The position numbers and the translations under genes were made by a program. Below, piece by piece: positions 604 to 20,668 of a stretch of 64,000 nt of DNA. The stretch covers positions 96,001-160,000 of the forward strand of contig CAXXIN010000018.1 of the NCBI GenBank assembly GCA_963665275.2, in the 5' to 3' direction. How positions within the stretch are numbered: position 1 is the stretch's first letter; each line of letters opens with the position of its first letter. The notes under the pieces were generated by a model. The model saw only the letters and a program-made list of their open reading frames with translations. It made no database searches and was not told the origin of the DNA. The DNA comes from Negativicutes bacterium (GTDB taxonomy: Bacteria > Bacillota > Negativicutes > UBA1444).

Positions 604-2619
604 TCAAGTTTCCTGGACAAGAGAGTCAATCAAAGAATCAGCAGCGAGATGGGGTAATGTGATGAAAGACCGGCCGTTCTGTGATTGGTTGAATTCGTTG
701 ACGGTAGTGATGGAGTGGGGATTGCGGGCCCAACTGCGGCGGGCGACTCCACCCATGACATCCCATAACATTGCAGACCGTATGATGTCATCCACACGAG
801 AGCTTCCATCCAGCACAAGACCAAAACCGCCGTTGATGGCTTTCCCAATACCGACCCCGCCGCCGTTATGCAAAGCGACCAGGCTCATACCGCGAGCCGC
901 ATTGCCGGCAAAGCACTGGATCGCCATATCGGCCATGACATTGCTGCCATCTTTAATATTGGCGGTCTCGCGAAAGGGCGAGTCCGTCCCGCTGACATCA
1001 TGATGATCCCGGCCAAGCATGACCGGACCGATTTCACCGTTGCGCACCATTTCGTTGAAACGCAGGGCAATTCGTATGCGCCCGTCCGCATCCTGATAAA
1101 GGATGCGGGCCTGTGTGCCGACAACTAATTTGTTTTGCTGCGCATCACGAATCCAGACGTAATTGTCACGGTCCTGGCCACGGCGCTCAGGATCAATGCA
1201 ACCCATGGCGGCCTGGTCGGTTTTTTCCAGATCTGAGGGGTTGCCGCTAAGACATACCCAGCGGAAGGGGCCGTATCCATAATCAAACAACTCAGGGCCC
1301 ATGATGTCTTCAACATAAGATGGAAAAATGAACCCGTCTTTTTCATCGACACCATTGCGGGATACCTCGCTGACGCCTGCATCAAACACCGCTTTGAGAA
1401 AGGAGTTCCCATAGTCGAAGAAGTATGTTCCCCGAGCAGTCAAAGTGCGGATGAGTTCAAACTGTTTTCGCAGGCTGGCGTTAACCAAGGTATGAAATTT
1501 TTGTCGATCTTCCGCCAACAGGCGGGTTCGTTCGTCAAAAGAGATTCCCTGCGGACAATAACCTCCATCATAGGGGACGTGGCAGGAAGTCTGGTCCGAT
1601 AGCAGGGGTAGAGGGATATTGTGCTCAACAACATATTCAATCAAATCGACGATGTTGCCGTGATAAGCAATGGCGAGAGGTTCACGATTTACTCGTGCGG
1701 TATTAGCCAGACGAAAGACTTCCGGCAGTTGATCGGACATGCAGCTGATCCAACCCTGACTCAGACGGGTCTGGATACGGGAAAGATCAACCTCGGCTAT
1801 GATGCCGACACCTCCGGCGATTTCAATGGCCTTCCCCTGCGCACCGCTCATGCCGCCGAGACCGGAGGTGATGAAGAGGCTGCCGCGCAAATCTTCGTTA
1901 TGGCTTAGGCCAAGCTTGAGCCGTCCTGCATTGAGTAGAGTATTGAAGGTTCCATGCACAATGCCCTGGGGCCCGATATACATCCAACCGCCTGCGGTCA
2001 TTTGACCATAGTTGGCAACGCCCATCTGCTCAGCGATTTCCCAGTCGTTTTGGTTGTCGAACATGCCGACCATCAATGCATTGGTGATGATGACCCGAGG
2101 GGCGTCAGGTTTGGACGGGAACAAGCCCAACGGGTGACCCGATTCGATTACGAGGGTCTGATCCTGGGTCAATACCTCAAGGTATTGCTTGATGAGTTTG
2201 TATTGCAGCCAGTTTTGACAGACACTGCCGGTTTCGCCGTAAGTAACCAGCTCGTAGGGATATAAGGCGACATCCGGATCCAGATTGTTGTCAATCATGA
2301 CCTGGAACGCCTTGCCTTCAATGCAGGCGCCTTTGTATTCATCGATCGGTTTGCCCCGCAAGCGTTGAGGAGGCATGTAACGGTAAGCATAAATCCGGCC
2401 GCGCGTTTTCAGTTCATGCAAAAATTCCGGTGCGAGAGTCGCGTGCAGGGATGCAGGTACATAGCGCAAGGCGTTGCGCAAGGCGGTTTTCGTCTGGGCG
2501 GGCGTCAGCTTGAAACCACGGTCAGGCGCCCTTCGCAGTGCCGGGTCAAAAGAGATCGACGGTGGAAGTTCACTCCCAAGGCCGATGGAAAAATAACTGG
2601 ATTTTGCAATTTCACTCAT
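604..2619 (-). CDS. hutU: Urocanate hydratase (long ~670-aa form)
   Basis: Motifs GQMTAGGWMYIGPQGIVHGT, SGLGGMSGAQ, SDQTSCH, GRDHHDVSGTDSPFRET, HNGGGVG. Confidence 0.95.
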   Translation of the reverse strand: MSEIAKSSYFSIGLGSELPPSISFDPALRRAPDRGFKLTPAQTKTALRNALRYVPASLHATLAPEFLHELKTRGRIYAYRYMPPQRLRGKPIDEYKGACIEGKAFQVMIDNNLDPDVALYPYELVTYGETGSVCQNWLQYKLIKQYLEVLTQDQTLVIESGHPLGLFPSKPDAPRVIITNALMVGMFDNQNDWEIAEQMGVANYGQMTAGGWMYIGPQGIVHGTFNTLLNAGRLKLGLSHNEDLRGSLFITSGLGGMSGAQGKAIEIAGGVGIIAEVDLSRIQTRLSQGWISCMSDQLPEVFRLANTARVNREPLAIAYHGNIVDLIEYVVEHNIPLPLLSDQTSCHVPYDGGYCPQGISFDERTRLLAEDRQKFHTLVNASLRKQFELIRTLTARGTYFFDYGNSFLKAVFDAGVSEVSRNGVDEKDGFIFPSYVEDIMGPELFDYGYGPFRWVCLSGNPSDLEKTDQAAMGCIDPERRGQDRDNYVWIRDAQQNKLVVGTQARILYQDADGRIRIALRFNEMVRNGEIGPVMLGRDHHDVSGTDSPFRETANIKDGSNVMADMAIQCFAGNAARGMSLVALHNGGGVGIGKAINGGFGLVLDGSSRVDDIIRSAMLWDVMGGVARRSWARNPHSITTVNEFNQSQNGRSFITLPHLAADSLIDSLVQET

Positions 2620-4776: not shown

Positions 4777-5982
4777 GTGTGGAACTGGTTCTTGAAAATT
4801 TTGTTTTCCCCGCTCGGTGCGTTGTTGTCCAGTCAATTTCTTTCCGCTTTCGTCGATAATACGCTCCTGTTCATCGCTCAGGCGATTATCCGGCGGGATG
4901 GATTTCCCGATTATTATCTGCCGCTGGTGCAGGGCCTGTACCTTGCTTCTTATATAGTTGCATCCCCCTGGGTTGGCGTATTTTCGGATTATGTTCCGAA
5001 GGCGCGCGTGTTGCTTTATGGCAACATTATTAAAGCGCTTTGTCTGGTAGGCTTCCTTTTGGGAGTGAACCCGGCTTTGAGTTACGGTATTTTCGGACTG
5101 GGGTCGGTGATCTACAGCCCGGCAAAGTATGGCATCCTACCTTTTCTCACACGCAATGAGCATAAATTGATGCGGGCCAACTCCTGGATGGAAGGGACCA
5201 CGATTGTGGCCATTCTCAGCGGTTCGGTCCTGGGCGCAACATTGTCGGACTATTCCATTCCGCTGGCTTGTGTTGTTGGAATGTTCTTGTACGCCGGCTC
5301 CATTGCCTTTACCTGGTTGATTCCCCTGAACCCCTGCAGCGGTCACAGGCCTCGTCTGAATCAGATCGGCGAGTTTTTTTCTGACATAAAACTGTTTATG
5401 ACGCACGTTGATGCCCGATTTTCAGTCATTGGTTCCGCTTTTTTCTGGACGGTATCCAATATTCTGCGGCTGGGGATGTTCGTCTGGGTACCGGAAGCAC
5501 TTGGATTGGCCGGTAATAAACCAGTGAGCCTGTTGATGGCAGTTATTGGCGTTGGTATCGGCATCGGCGCATTCATGGCGCCTAAGTTCGTATCGGTCCG
5601 GACTTATCGTCGGGCAATACTGTTCGGTATTATCATGGGGATTACGGTGATGGTGCTGAGTTATGTGCACACTTTGAACATTGCTGTCGGGCTGATTTTC
5701 ATCGTAGGTTTGTTGGGTGGGTTATATATTGTTCCGGTCAACACCCTGAATGAATATTTGGGAGACGGGACCATCGGAACCGGCCGTGCGACAACGGTGC
5801 AAAATTTCGCCGAAAACACGTTCATGCTGATGGGAACCGGTGCTTATACTTTTGCGGAACAAATCAACATACCGATCGATCACACCATCCGTTGGTGCGG
5901 ATTGCTCTTGCTTGGCTTTATGGCATTTTTAGCTTTCTACCGCAAAGGTTGTCCGATTGCGGTACGTGGCGATATTAAATGA
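4777..5982 (+). CDS. lplT: Lysophospholipid transporter LplT-like MFS protein
   Basis: SQFLSAFVDN, YSPAKYGILP, ANSWMEG, VQNFAEN motifs; multiple TM segments. Confidence 0.8.
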   Translation: MWNWFLKILFSPLGALLSSQFLSAFVDNTLLFIAQAIIRRDGFPDYYLPLVQGLYLASYIVASPWVGVFSDYVPKARVLLYGNIIKALCLVGFLLGVNPALSYGIFGLGSVIYSPAKYGILPFLTRNEHKLMRANSWMEGTTIVAILSGSVLGATLSDYSIPLACVVGMFLYAGSIAFTWLIPLNPCSGHRPRLNQIGEFFSDIKLFMTHVDARFSVIGSAFFWTVSNILRLGMFVWVPEALGLAGNKPVSLLMAVIGVGIGIGAFMAPKFVSVRTYRRAILFGIIMGITVMVLSYVHTLNIAVGLIFIVGLLGGLYIVPVNTLNEYLGDGTIGTGRATTVQNFAENTFMLMGTGAYTFAEQINIPIDHTIRWCGLLLLGFMAFLAFYRKGCPIAVRGDIK

Positions 5983-15421: not shown

Positions 15422-15982
15422 TTAGTAGCGGGGACCGGGAAACTGGCGCGGGAAGATTTTGTCCAGACGGTTCAGCATTTCTTCCAGAGCATCCAGCGCC
15501 AAGGGCAGGGGACCGCTGAAGACACCCACAATTTCCGTGGCAGAGCGAGCTGCCTTGAATTGGCCGTATTGAGAGGTCTTTTTGTCGAAATAAGTGAGAG
15601 AAAGGTTGAGATCGGTTACCTCAACCATTTCATCCCCCAGGAGACTCTGTTGCAAGAAGTTCCGCAGGAAATTGATTTCCACGATGACCGTGCCCTCTGC
15701 CCCCGCATCGTTGGTGATTTTCTCCAGTGTCAGACGATCTGGCGCTACAGCTTTAGAGTCGGTCAAGATAATTTCATACTTCGGGAACCGGAACTGACTG
15801 CGTAACTTGCCGAGCAAGGCGGAATTCAGCTCGGGGCTGTTATACCCGGATTTGTCGCTGATCGCAGGCAGAAGGATCTTCGTTGAGTCGAACGCATAGG
15901 CGGACGGTAGGTTTGCAAAGATCATTATTAGTGTGACCATCACCAGAAACAGGGAATTCAGACGATGTGGCGCATATTTCAT
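15422..15982 (-). CDS. Secreted hypothetical protein
   Basis: Signal peptide ending AYA; AGGAG RBS. Confidence 0.7.
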   Translation of the reverse strand: MKYAPHRLNSLFLVMVTLIMIFANLPSAYAFDSTKILLPAISDKSGYNSPELNSALLGKLRSQFRFPKYEIILTDSKAVAPDRLTLEKITNDAGAEGTVIVEINFLRNFLQQSLLGDEMVEVTDLNLSLTYFDKKTSQYGQFKAARSATEIVGVFSGPLPLALDALEEMLNRLDKIFPRQFPGPRY

Positions 15983-16065
15983 TGCAGCTCACTCCTTCGA
16001 TTCAAGATTGTTAATATAATTATAGTTTTTTTTCGGCAGAAGCGTGATTCACACCTGCAGAAAAA

Positions 16066-16094
16066 TTGACACATAATTGTCCGTCTGCTAGGAT
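16066..16094 (+). promoter_or_regulatory. SigA-type promoter of symporter-hutP operon
   Basis: TTGACA (16066) - 17 bp - TAGGAT (16089) with TGn extension. Confidence 0.65.
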
Positions 16095-16162
16095 GGAAAA
16101 TGTAGAATGGTAGGTTTCCCGGTTAAACCTTGGGTCGAGCATGGCAGGATGGTGAAGAAACA

Positions 16163-16192
16163 AAACACTCCCTGGCCGGAGTGTTTCTTTTT
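16163..16192 (+). terminator. Leader (attenuator) terminator upstream of symporter
   Basis: AAACACTCC-ctggcc-GGAGTGTTT followed by CTTTTT, between promoter and start codon. Confidence 0.65.
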
Positions 16193-16254
16193 GCCTGAAT
16201 GTATATCCAAGATGGCCGATAAAGGATATATACTAACGGTGTAGAAAGGTAGGA

Positions 16255-17670
16255 ATGGTAAAAATGTCACTTCAACTTGGTATTATTTTACTGTACATCG
16301 CGTTATTGTTCGGAATTAGTTTGTATGCCAAGCGTTTGGCTGCCAACGGTAGCACCAATTTTTTGTTTGCCGGGCGCAAAATGGGCACGGGGCTCGTGGC
16401 GGTGAATGTTGCAGGGCTCGCTATCGGAGCAGCCTCAACGATCGGTGTTGCTGAACACGCTTTTACAGCGGGAATCGCTGCCGGGTGGTACAATGCCGCT
16501 TGGTCGGCGGGCGCGTTGGTCATGGGAGTCTTCGCGGCGGCGAAATACCGTGACATGGATTGCACGACTGTGCCGGAACTTTTTGAACGGTATTATGACA
16601 AAAATAGCCGCGTCATAGCTGTAGTCGGGCTGGTCATCATCCAGATGGTCATTACTGCCCTGCAATATTTGGCCGGCGGAGCGATTCTATCGTCATTGCT
16701 GCCTGAATATTTCACGTTTCAGCTGGGCATGATCGTCAGCGCGGCTGTCTTTATCGGCATTACGCTAATCGGCGGACTCTGGTCTTCCGGACTTTCGAAT
16801 ATCGTCAGCATGATTTTAATCTACATTGGTGTCCTGGCTGGTACTTACATGACGGTTTCCAACCAGGGCGGCATCGGCGCCATCGCGGCAAAACTGCCTG
16901 CGGGGACTGACTGGTTCGGTCCGATTGGAGGGCTGGGGCTCGCCACGATCATTGGCTGGTTCGCGGTTATGATGACGCAGTCGATTACCGCACAGGGACC
17001 CGTGCAGATTGCCTGCGGCGCCCGCGACGGCAAGGCGGCGAGAAATGGATATCTATTGGGTGCGCTTATCATTTTTCCCATCGGCTTTTTATGTGCGTTG
17101 ATGGGGCTGGCGGCTAAAGTAGCTTATCCCAATATTAAGGCGACCATGGCTCTGCCACAGATCATTATGAGTCTCGATCCACTTCTTTCAGGGATGACTC
17201 TGGCAGCCCTCTGGGCGGCGGATGTTTCCACGGCCTGCACTTTGTTGCTGGGGGCGGGAACACTGTTTTCCCAGGATATTTTCAAGCGCTTTATCGCTCC
17301 GGGAATTACCGATAAAAAATATGTGATTGTGAATCGGATTGCGATTTTGGCCATCGGACTTGTTACTTTGTGGTTTGCTTTTAACGCAGTGGGGATTTTG
17401 CGGACGCTGTTGATCGGCCTCAGTTTGACCACTGCATTTACGGTGGTGTTTTTGTTTACTATTTTTACTCCCGGGCTTTGCCGAAAAAGTTCCGCCTTTT
17501 ATACCACACTGGTGGGGATGCTTGGCTTGGCTGCTTGGCAGGTGTTCCCGGCTGTCCGGGTATTTGCGCATCCCATCTATATGGAGTGGACAGTTTGTCT
17601 GGTGACTTTTTTTCTGGTATCTGTAATCGACAAACGAAAAATATCCAAAACACCCAGTTTTTCAAAGTAA
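16255..17670 (+). CDS. Sodium:solute symporter (SSS) family transporter
   Basis: FLFAGRK, TVPELFERYY, TLIGGLWS; about 13 TM segments. Confidence 0.9.
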   Translation: MVKMSLQLGIILLYIALLFGISLYAKRLAANGSTNFLFAGRKMGTGLVAVNVAGLAIGAASTIGVAEHAFTAGIAAGWYNAAWSAGALVMGVFAAAKYRDMDCTTVPELFERYYDKNSRVIAVVGLVIIQMVITALQYLAGGAILSSLLPEYFTFQLGMIVSAAVFIGITLIGGLWSSGLSNIVSMILIYIGVLAGTYMTVSNQGGIGAIAAKLPAGTDWFGPIGGLGLATIIGWFAVMMTQSITAQGPVQIACGARDGKAARNGYLLGALIIFPIGFLCALMGLAAKVAYPNIKATMALPQIIMSLDPLLSGMTLAALWAADVSTACTLLLGAGTLFSQDIFKRFIAPGITDKKYVIVNRIAILAIGLVTLWFAFNAVGILRTLLIGLSLTTAFTVVFLFTIFTPGLCRKSSAFYTTLVGMLGLAAWQVFPAVRVFAHPIYMEWTVCLVTFFLVSVIDKRKISKTPSFSK

Positions 17671-17706
17671 GCAAGCAAATATTGCAGGGGTAGAGGAGGG
17701 GATGAA

Positions 17707-18156
17707 ATGGTTCCCACGACATTGACCAGTTTGGATATCGGCCGAGCAGCCCTTAAAATGGCTGTGACTGAAAACCGTGAGGAAGAGCAGAGTTTGCGCC
17801 AGGCTTTGTTGGAAAAACAGGGAATACACTCGTTGGCCATTGATTTTGGCGGCGATTTTGTGCCATCCGTTAAAAAGATCATCGAACGGGCGGTTGTGGC
17901 AGCTCAGCGTCAGGGTCTGGTGCCTTCCAATCATGTCGGGGAGGGGGCGGTTGCCGGGGCGGTGCGCGCCGCGCTGGGACAGATATCTTCACAGGCTGTG
18001 GGCTTGTCTGTCGGTGGGAAAATCGGTGTTGCGCGTTACGGAGAACACCTTTGCGTCGCAATATACCTGGGAATAGGAGTACTGAACCTTAATGAAGTAG
18101 CGGTGGGCTTGGCCCACCGCTCACTTCCCGAACAATACAATTCGACTAATTCATGA
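17707..18156 (+). CDS. HutP-family RNA-binding antiterminator-like protein
   Basis: IGRAALKM, KIIERAVVAAQRQGLV, GGKIGVAR, AVGLAHR; 149 aa. Confidence 0.8.
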   Translation: MVPTTLTSLDIGRAALKMAVTENREEEQSLRQALLEKQGIHSLAIDFGGDFVPSVKKIIERAVVAAQRQGLVPSNHVGEGAVAGAVRAALGQISSQAVGLSVGGKIGVARYGEHLCVAIYLGIGVLNLNEVAVGLAHRSLPEQYNSTNS

Positions 18157-19345: not shown

Positions 19346-20668
19346 TTGCAAATGGAGGGACGAATTGTGGGAGACAAAATTTACAAGTTCGGATACGGTA
19401 ACACTACGGTAGAGTTGGCGTTGCCGGCAGAGCAAGTTATTCATGAGGTTGAAGGGCGTCCGGTTGCAGCGATTGAAGATGTGCCGGCTGCGGTGAGGCA
19501 AGCGCTTCGCAATCCTATCGGAACTCCGCCGTTGAAAGAGATCGTGAAAGCAGGGGAAACAGTAGCGATTGTTGTTAGCGACATCACCCGAGCCTGGATT
19601 AAAGCAAATCAGTTTTTGCCGACATTACTGGATGAGCTGAACGCAGCCGGAATCCCCGACCAGGATATTTTCATCATGATAGCGCTCGGGGCCCATCGCC
19701 CGCATACGGATGAGGAGGATGTGGTTGTCTGCGGCGCATCGGTGTGCCATCGAGTACGGATTTATCAACACAATGCCCGGGATAAAGCGGGACTGGCATA
19801 CAACGGGAAAACTTCGCGAGGCGTGGAGGCATGGACGAATAAAAGAGTCATGGAAGCCGACAGGATCATTCTGACAGGCGGTATCGTTTATCACCTCATG
19901 GCTGGGTTTGGCGCCGGGCGCAAGGCGGTTATGCCGGGCATCAGCGGTTACGAGACAATACAGGCTAACCATCGATTTTGTCTGCATCCGGAAGTCGGAC
20001 ACGGTTTGAATCCCCACTGCATGTCAGGTCGGACCGAAGGCAATGATATGCATGAGGACCAAATGGAAATCGCAACGCTTGTAAATCCCGACTTCTTGCT
20101 CAATGTAGTAAATACGCCGGAAGGAAAATTCGCCGGCATTTTTGCCGGACATTGGCAAAAAGCCTGGGAAGAGGGATGCAAGCTGGTAGAGAAAATCTAC
20201 GGCATCCCCATTACAGCCAAGGCTGATTTGGTAGTGGCTTCAGCCGGAGGCTTCCCCAAAGACATCAACCTTTATCAGGGTTCGAAATCACTCGATAATG
20301 CCTATATGGCCACCAAATCCGGCGGCGTTGCGATTTGTTTTCTCGAATGTCGCGATATCATGGAACCGGCGGAGTTCAGCAACTGGTTCAAGTATCCTGA
20401 TGCGCTGGCGTTTGAGACTGCATTGCGGGCTGCTTTTACGGTGCCTGGCTTCATTGCATTCAAGTGCATTTCCATCGCTCAGGATATTTCGATGATTGTG
20501 GTGACGAAGCCGGAAAATGCCGAATTCATCCGTAAAACAGGCATGATTCCCGCGAGTTCCGCCGAAGAAGCGATGCAAATGGCCCGGGAAAAAATCGGCC
20601 GCGACGACTTCACCATTACGGTGATGAGCCATGCGGCCAATACGGTTCCTTTATTGAAACAAGGTTAA
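19346..20668 (+). CDS. larA: LarA-family nickel-pincer racemase/epimerase (likely start GTG 19367)
   Basis: ALRNPIG, SDITR, GAHR, HLMAGFGAGRK, NH, GGFPKDINLYQGSK. Confidence 0.85.
   Translation: MQMEGRIVGDKIYKFGYGNTTVELALPAEQVIHEVEGRPVAAIEDVPAAVRQALRNPIGTPPLKEIVKAGETVAIVVSDITRAWIKANQFLPTLLDELNAAGIPDQDIFIMIALGAHRPHTDEEDVVVCGASVCHRVRIYQHNARDKAGLAYNGKTSRGVEAWTNKRVMEADRIILTGGIVYHLMAGFGAGRKAVMPGISGYETIQANHRFCLHPEVGHGLNPHCMSGRTEGNDMHEDQMEIATLVNPDFLLNVVNTPEGKFAGIFAGHWQKAWEEGCKLVEKIYGIPITAKADLVVASAGGFPKDINLYQGSKSLDNAYMATKSGGVAICFLECRDIMEPAEFSNWFKYPDALAFETALRAAFTVPGFIAFKCISIAQDISMIVVTKPENAEFIRKTGMIPASSAEEAMQMAREKIGRDDFTITVMSHAANTVPLLKQG

Follow-up and report, generated by a model that had tools for sequence, protein, structure and literature searches.

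Two RNA-binding regulators of Bacillus, TRAP and HutP, are the closest described parallels to the system analysed here: an operon of a sodium:solute symporter (SSS) transporter gene and a hutP-like gene, preceded by a leader of about 160 nt. It lies in a 64,000-nt stretch of the genome of a Negativicutes bacterium (assembly GCA_963665275.2, contig CAXXIN010000018.1, positions 96,001 to 160,000 of the forward strand), hereafter called the window and numbered from its first letter. Comparison of related loci makes a convincing case that the HutP-like protein regulates its own operon through UAG repeats in the leader, and that this circuit is widespread in Negativicutes. As for the direction of control, we favour TRAP-like repression by the HutP-fold protein at its own leader, a reading suggested by the arrangement of the sites and given a probability of about 0.5.

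TRAP (MtrB) is a ring protein reading arrays of (G/U)AG triplets, with 11 repeats and spacers of 2-3 nt. Bound TRAP takes an antiterminator strand out of play, whereupon a terminator forms; elsewhere it covers the ribosome-binding sites of transporter and biosynthetic genes. HutP, known for more than 20 years, is to our knowledge a one-system family so far: one operon, in Bacillus.

Our reference for HutP was the antiterminator of the B. subtilis hut operon (Pfam PF09021; PDB 1WPV, 1WMQ and 3BOY). According to its published description (PMC2425495), the protein reads XAG triplet arrays in a motif UAG-N4-UAG-N4-UAG, of 7-nt period, and its terminator is opened when HutP occupies another XAG cluster, located 3′ of the GC-rich 5′ arm. 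A 2025 review of RNA-binding antiterminators gives HutP homologs only in B. cereus and B. anthracis. We found no published description of the present circuit, and no paper that brings HutP together with serine dehydratase or with genera of Negativicutes; subscription journals, and databases like RegPrecise, lay outside this search, and a prior computational mention is possible.

The operon in the window resembles hut in carrying XAG triplet arrays in its leader, in two or more clusters comparable to HutP sites I and II (single-stranded in the case of HutP), and in encoding the regulator that apparently controls it. The protein belongs to the same Pfam family and has the same fold (template modelling (TM) score 0.72). 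Unlike in hut, the regulator gene follows the regulated terminator instead of preceding it, the triplet spacer is N5 (8-nt period) instead of N4, one site covers the Shine-Dalgarno sequence, and no XAG cluster lies beyond the terminator 5′ arm. The target also differs: in place of hutHUIG there is an SSS transporter, to which 28 of 80 related loci add serine dehydratase genes. The protein itself is only 18-24% identical to HutP, does not match any PDB HutP by sequence, and does not conserve at least two of the three metal-binding histidines (the alignment register being ambiguous). Judged by sequence, it is not HutP sensu stricto: pocket, RNA spacing, operon and gene order all differ.

With TRAP the likeness is one of logic and not of ancestry: site 2 of the leader overlaps a candidate antiterminator and site 3 covers the Shine-Dalgarno sequence. 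The folds are unrelated, and no TRAP gene (PF02081) was found in the same genome, which is 92.6% complete. Each cluster has 2-4 repeats separated by 5 nt, the circuit would serve uptake or catabolism as opposed to biosynthesis, and the antiterminator is weak and statistically unproven. Finally, T-box leaders on paralogous SSS transporters of the same genomes also place an amino-acid-type transporter under leader-RNA control; they sense tRNA, need no protein and belong to a known Rfam family (RF00230), whereas the leader studied here has no Rfam match.

Period-8 UAG repeats and the HutP-like gene

The sequence-only reading of the window had placed a promoter, a terminator and two copies of a UAG motif in front of the transporter gene, all of which were recovered at the same positions on checking the sequence (Table 1). 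The motif, TGTAGAAWGGTAGG, matches the window twice, at sites 1 and 3, compared with 0.02 matches expected from 100 shuffles. Its 12-mer core, GTAGRAWGGTAG, occurs at just these two places on both strands of the 3.97-Mb genome. From the promoter position the transcript is predicted to start at about 16100-16102; the promoter stands just 5′ of site 1, an arrangement kept in relatives.

A search for related loci matched 403 stretches, 142 of them encoding a relative of the HutP-like protein, of which the 80 best were retained for comparison. Almost all of them bear a Negativicutes label (Sporomusaceae, Pelosinus, Propionispira/Propionispora, Phascolarctobacterium, Dialister), apart from a few bins that are plainly labelled otherwise (for instance Escherichia coli or Patescibacteria). 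The transporter gene stands directly upstream of hutP-like in 64 of the 80. Contig ends truncate three of these pairs, and another locus, which begins within the gene, could not be judged; 61 complete orthologous leaders and that of the window make up the 62 leaders compared below.

Their sequences have diverged nearly throughout, except for short purine-rich blocks. Distances between UAG triplets peak sharply at 8 nt (95 pairs, compared with 6.8 in mononucleotide shuffles), with a harmonic at 16 nt (26 compared with 6.3); the canonical HutP distance of 7 nt is seen once. In 61 of the 62 leaders, the Shine-Dalgarno sequence is covered by a period-8 XAG chain no more than 30 nt from the start codon. 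The consensus of this start-proximal chain in relatives is GUAGAAAGGUAG, and that of site 3, conserved at 80% or more across 59 anchored leaders, is GtAGAAAGGTAG. At least one chain is also found upstream of the ribosome-binding-site region in 59 of 62. In at least 18 leaders the first chain begins 7-10 nt after the predicted -10 hexamer, that is, at the 5′ end of the RNA.

Terminators are less general: 24 of the 62 leaders contain one, namely those of the window's group, Pelosinus and Propionispora, and 38 do not, including all from Phascolarctobacterium. Just 5′ of the terminator, the 24 share a block (U/C)AGGAUGG(C/U)AGGAUGG, and their alignment gives the conserved block AUGGCAGGAUGGUG. The 5′ arm of the terminator holds CAC[CU]C in 23 of 24, compared with 4 of 493 terminator-like sites of the window's own genome. 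Between leaders with CAG/CUG and those with UAG/UUA, a change from C:G to U:A was noticed by eye alone, as MAFFT misaligned the terminator arms.

We then considered the distribution of both genes in 201 sampled Negativicutes genomes, calling transporter orthologs at 61% identity or more (paralogs reach at most 54%). Both genes occur in 90 genomes, the transporter alone in 14, the HutP-like protein alone in 20 and neither in 77; the HutP-like subfamily is thus present in 110. Where hutP-like stands alone in its locus, five of five genomes hold a transporter ortholog elsewhere, 67-70% identical and up to hundreds of kb away. All five of these distant orthologs have UAG-rich upstream sequence and GUAG(A/G)AAGGUAG at the ribosome-binding site. 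A period-8 chain is found in none of the 14 transporter-only leaders, which carry an ordinary AGGAG-type Shine-Dalgarno sequence instead; since 11 of the 14 come from one genus, they represent about four independent lineages. Altogether, three comparative lines tie the leader sites to the HutP-like protein, in our view convincingly, as far as sequence comparison can.

It is very improbable that the repeats are not read by the HutP-like protein at all, and are instead operators of a DNA-binding factor or an extended Shine-Dalgarno or standby sequence in a coincidental neighbourhood. Site 3 does look like a Shine-Dalgarno sequence carrying an additional U, AGAAAGG(U)AGG, and site 1 overlaps the predicted transcription start, where repressors often bind. 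However, the repeats are direct, on one strand and of 8-nt period, unlike palindromic operators, and they are XAG triplet arrays, such as the HutP fold reads in B. subtilis. They also track the HutP-like gene, near or distant, while transporter orthologs without the protein make do with a plain Shine-Dalgarno sequence. The pairing of a HutP-family protein with UAG sites in its own operon leader, placed for action on termination and on translation, was the core of the sequence-only reading and is what comparative genomics upholds.

Table 1. Features of the operon and its leader (window coordinates).
Feature	Position	Strand	Sequence or description	Basis
Predicted sigma-70 promoter	16066-16094	+	TTGACA-17-TAGGAT with upstream TG extension	Sequence
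Site 1	16101-16114	+	UGUAGAAUGGUAGG; two UAG (16103-16105, 16111-16113), 8 nt apart, at the predicted mRNA 5′ end	
Site 2	16143-16158	+	GGCAGGAUGGUGAAGA; CAG at 16145-16147; (U/C)AGGAUGG-type element just 5′ of the terminator	
Intrinsic terminator	16163-16195	+	AAACACUCC-CUGGCC-GGAGUGUUU and U-tract	
Site 3	16240-16253	+	UGUAGAAAGGUAGG; UAG at 16242-16244 and 16250-16252; overlaps the transporter Shine-Dalgarno region	
SSS transporter	16264-17670	+	ATG at 16264; open reading frame also opens at 16255	Pfam SSF
HutP-like protein	17707-18156	+	Divergent HutP-family protein, 149 aa; presumed trans-acting RNA-binding regulator	

As DNA, the terminator (16163-16193) reads AAACACTCC-CTGGCC-GGAGTGTTT followed by CTTTTTG, with a stem at 16163-16186 of 9 bp, 4 of them GC. 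Two further hairpins of the sequence-only reading (16112-16130 and 16200-16232) are possible structures, though relatives do not conserve them. The whole leader shows no global structure when folded against shuffles (z = -0.47). Nor is it a known riboswitch by the Rfam 15 covariance models, which gave no match at E ≤ 10 on either strand of 15900-16400; two related leader loci, L089 and L091, likewise match no Rfam family.

Some pairings around site 2 deserve mention. Immediately 3′ of the terminator U-tract, UGCC (16192-16195) could base-pair with the GGCA in site 2 (16143-16146), and UGC(C/U) at this place is conserved in relatives. In loci L004, L005, L007 and L008, site 2 and the terminator together are flanked by the two strands of an 8-bp CUGAGCA/UGCUCAG helix.

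A divergent HutP-family protein

By profile and fold, the window protein belongs to the HutP family, though it has diverged greatly, and the hutP-like gene that had been noted after the transporter is confirmed as such. It matches Pfam HutP over the full model (1-128 of 128) with E = 2e-42 and 144.9 bits, the cut-off being 25. Its AlphaFold model (predicted local distance difference test, pLDDT, 88.8; predicted TM score, pTM, 0.84) shows the alpha/beta HutP fold with a four-stranded antiparallel sheet, and the Foldseek ranks 1-10 are all HutP chains (E 5.6e-7 to 2.7e-5, TM 0.62-0.72). Sequence-based searches of PDB chains, using phmmer or a 37-sequence profile, gave no match to HutP, and NCBIfam gave no HutP equivalog match. 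The subfamily is small, with 222 cluster representatives at E ≤ 1e-3 among 1.84 billion proteins. By homology with the HutP hexamer and its two RNA-binding faces, the protein is presumably multimeric and would bind the leader RNA.

The L-histidine/Mg2+ pocket of HutP consists of His73, His77, His138, Arg88 and Arg98; the residue numbering was checked against the PDB chain. The sequence-only reading held the metal-binding histidines to be lost. This is borne out for His138, which aligns to E130 or N129 (LNLNE) of the window protein. For His73 and His77 the register is ambiguous, as BLAST and hhalign differ around the helix, and at most one of the two could be kept, as H76. Arg98 aligns to L/F100 in this approximate mapping. 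Within that approximation, the histidine/metal pocket appears not to be conserved. Residues invariant in the clade include E113, H114, C116, N129, E130, H137 and R138.

A second, more canonical HutP paralog is encoded in the same genome at C7:497944-498336 (minus strand; locus L002, 1477-1914, minus strand). It is 31% identical to the window protein and matches PDB HutP at 7.5e-4. Its gene stands 5′ of an intergenic region of about 300 nt, one stretch of which is rich in XAG/GAG and which also holds a strong terminator; next comes a gene for a family-III coenzyme A (CoA)-transferase: the classical order of hutP, terminator and enzyme, yet in a non-hut operon.

Direction of control and ligand

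In the mechanism that we favour, the operon would be controlled via its own leader RNA by the HutP-fold protein that it encodes. The protein multimer would read the A-G of XAG triplets placed 8 nt apart (UAG-N5-UAG), in three clusters. On site 3 it would hide the ribosome-binding site; on site 2 it would block the pairing of a G-rich strand with the terminator 5′ arm, letting the terminator form. Binding would be switched by a small ligand, for which L-serine or a closely related compound is the likeliest candidate, and for a catabolic or uptake operon the ligand's action would most simply be the release of RNA.

The sequence-only reading had instead proposed antitermination. In its HutP-type form, a ligand-activated protein would sit on sites 1 and 2 as they emerge and stop the 16163-16186 hairpin, site 3 giving secondary feedback or having no effect on translation; we regard this as rather unlikely, yet as a serious rival. 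Its precedent is the sole studied member of the family, which antiterminates with two XAG clusters on two faces. Sites 1 and 2 are indeed transcribed ahead of the terminator, and the unbound leader has its minimum free energy with the terminator formed, which makes 'off' look like the default. A substrate-induced activator would also suit an operon with serine dehydratase. The gene order is no obstacle, antiterminator genes being commonly found downstream of the terminator they control, as with bglG and amiR.

The layout of the sites points the other way. We infer the direction of control from it, repression fitting better than antitermination because the sole universal site covers the Shine-Dalgarno sequence, because site 2 is complementary to the terminator 5′ arm and loop, and because no conserved XAG cluster follows the 5′ arm as in the HutP mechanism: no more than a single, unconserved GAG occurs in the loop and 3′ arm. 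Protein bound to site 2 would free the 5′ arm for pairing with the 3′ arm and not block that pairing. Moreover, 38 of 62 leaders keep the sites though they lack a terminator, for which reason translation is the sole visible target there; no structure hiding the Shine-Dalgarno sequence, which the protein could relieve, was found in these 38, so that protein bound at this site could hardly act other than by blocking ribosomes. On these grounds we prefer TRAP-like repression to the earlier proposal of antitermination.

An effect on the fate of the mRNA would reconcile a substrate-induced operon with the terminator-less leaders. Protein bound at the 5′ end (site 1) and near the start codon would then protect the transcript from 5′-end-dependent decay or block the loading of Rho, and so activate expression without antitermination in the classical sense. 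Such a role, which we consider improbable, draws on the position of site 1, whose start, in at least 18 leaders, follows the predicted -10 box by 7-10 nt and hence falls at the transcript 5′ end. The transcript start is a predicted one, however, nothing in the sequence points directly to such a role, and a covered Shine-Dalgarno sequence should still block ribosomes.

Returning to TRAP-like repression, its attenuation branch depends on site 2 as a candidate antiterminator strand. The element GGCAGGAUGGUG (16143-16154) is complementary to CACUCCCUGGCC (16166-16177), in the 5′ arm and loop of the terminator. In folds constrained to leave the 3′ arm single-stranded, most of 21 leaders form a helix between site 2 and the 5′ arm with loop. 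The median energy of the duplex between site 2 and the 5′ arm is -10.7 kcal/mol, compared with -6.7 at the 493 terminator-like sites of the same genome, and 83% of leaders reach -9 kcal/mol or lower, compared with 20% of those background sites. The near-universal CAC[CU]C would be an odd feature for a terminator arm unless it also had to fit a site 2 constrained by the protein.

The nature of the ligand is approached through the operon. In related loci, hutP-like is followed on the same strand by sdaAB (28 of 80), sdaAA (27 of 80) and ridA (24 of 80), with a gap from hutP-like to sdaAB of at most 32 nt in 24 of the 28. The extended operon thus comprises the transporter, the regulator, the beta and alpha chains of L-serine dehydratase and RidA; it is found mainly in Phascolarctobacterium and also in two Sporomusaceae-like bins. 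Transporter paralogs of about 50% identity carry T-box leaders (RF00230, 126-133 bits), which marks the transporter group as amino-acid carriers. Because of this operon and these paralogs, L-serine or a near relative is the best candidate for substrate and signal alike, and it stands as our best guess.

The sequence-only reading had thought of urocanate, since hutU is about 14 kb away. The gene is indeed there (1303-1974, minus strand), but hutU is unlinked in the 80 related loci, and no hut gene at all occurs in those annotated; neither urocanate nor histidine was retained as ligand.

Several observations weigh against repression by a serine-responsive protein. When the G-rich strand is shuffled with its composition preserved, the antiterminator helix proves no better than the shuffles (mean z = -0.66, 0 of 24 below -2). 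In full-length folds, moreover, the terminator is the more stable state, with an advantage of some 1-13 kcal/mol across leaders and some 5 kcal/mol in the window, so that one cannot count on read-through when the protein is lacking. Owing to the relatedness of the 24 leaders, the Mann-Whitney p-value for the duplex energy makes the signal look stronger than it is. The sole characterised member of the family is an antiterminator whose RNA binding needs its ligand, and repression of a catabolic operon by its own substrate is implausible. Repression would thus require an inverted allostery, with the ligand releasing the RNA, the opposite of HutP and TRAP, or some other signal. As to serine, the link comes mostly from one family, Phascolarctobacterium and its relatives, and is absent from the window itself, and no period-8 sites lie upstream of the sdaAB/sdaAA operon of the same genome (C7). 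Finally, the 20 of 201 genomes that have the protein and no transporter ortholog imply other targets there.

The fuller picture goes further: a HutP-fold protein rewired into a TRAP-like attenuator and translational repressor, with an XAG-N5 code and a rebuilt pocket for L-serine or an analogue, which, acting in cis or in trans, governs serine uptake across Negativicutes and also, in Phascolarctobacterium and its relatives, serine deamination. Taken as a whole, we hold this picture only tentatively, with the odds somewhat against it. If true, no regulator of serine catabolism that binds RNA under ligand control would precede it, and the HutP family would gain a second functional class. What the comparison does show is a second, well-delimited subfamily, with its own RNA code of 8-nt period, a different operon and probably a different logic and ligand.

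Such a subfamily opens the questions of how a HutP-type multimer sets the spacing of its triplets and whether the same fold can both antiterminate and attenuate. It also bears on the control of serine uptake and deamination in gut Phascolarctobacterium and environmental Sporomusaceae. A conserved 14-nt site and a small protein would make a compact, orthogonal protein-RNA switch.

The transporter, its neighbourhood and other candidate sites

The transporter matches Pfam SSF (PF00474) over the full model (1-406 of 406) with E = 1.3e-23. In NCBIfam its matches are at superfamily level and all below cut-offs; the PanF and PutP models score far below, and no equivalog was found. The substrate is probably an amino acid, related to serine. 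We chose ATG 16264 as the start codon because the N-terminus MS(I/L)QL is conserved. In the window the operon consists of the transporter and regulator genes alone.

A paralog of the transporter, of 53% identity, is encoded in the same genome at C5:48322-49701 (minus strand). The T-box leaders of paralogs in L093, L095 and L097 (about 1130-1380) are followed by a second T-box-like element, GGGUGGUACCACG. By the rule of 'GAA + codon', their specifier would be GUU (valine).

Two other neighbours recur. A LarA-type gene (lactate racemase family) lies near the pair in the window (19346-20668, plus strand), in L078 (4445-5734, plus strand) and in L004 (5406-6929, plus strand); in L078, of Propionispora, it comes directly after hutP-like on the same strand. 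Divergently upstream of the operon, and sharing its regulatory region, a gene for a CorA-type Mg2+ transporter is found in 24 of 80 loci (e.g. L053, 1034-1981, minus strand). This neighbour is curious, as B. subtilis HutP needs Mg2+ for RNA binding; it may be mere inherited synteny.

Searching the same genome for sites by regular expression returned one good extra candidate and two weaker ones. The former, at C12:49528 (minus strand; L086, about 5020-5050, minus strand), reads GUAGCAAGGUAGAAAGGGAG, a clean three-triplet period-8 chain over the ribosome-binding site of a gene for an NMT1-type ATP-binding cassette (ABC) substrate-binding protein; a UAG also stands just after its TATAAT box, and the gene may be a second target. 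Of the weaker look-alikes, one is at C15:47002 and the other, at C20:2318, precedes a B3/4-domain gene, itself preceded by the gene for an oxidoreductase subunit in which Pfam recognises a POR domain. In five genomes with the protein and no transporter ortholog, the site pattern matched once, before a small secreted protein, which is uninformative.

Transporter-ortholog leaders in loci without a HutP-like gene (L098-L108) share a different conserved element, GTTGCA-N6-GGAAC-N5-GTTGC(A), with an ordinary Shine-Dalgarno sequence some 40-60 nt downstream of it. It looks like the site of a replacement regulator.

Where the transporter ortholog is missing, hutP-like keeps other company. In small-genome bacteria of Veillonellaceae/Dialister type it comes directly after thrS (L043, L081, L113, L118), in L043 between thrS and infC, and in L114 and L119 it follows trpB-trpA. 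In L048 (the same region as L117), it precedes what N-terminal similarity suggests to be a MATE-type gene. About 150 nt upstream of hutP-like in this locus, inside a longer UAG/CAG-rich stretch, runs a UAG series with 4-nt spacers, UAGgauuUAGgaauUAG, whose 7-nt period is the canonical HutP spacing.

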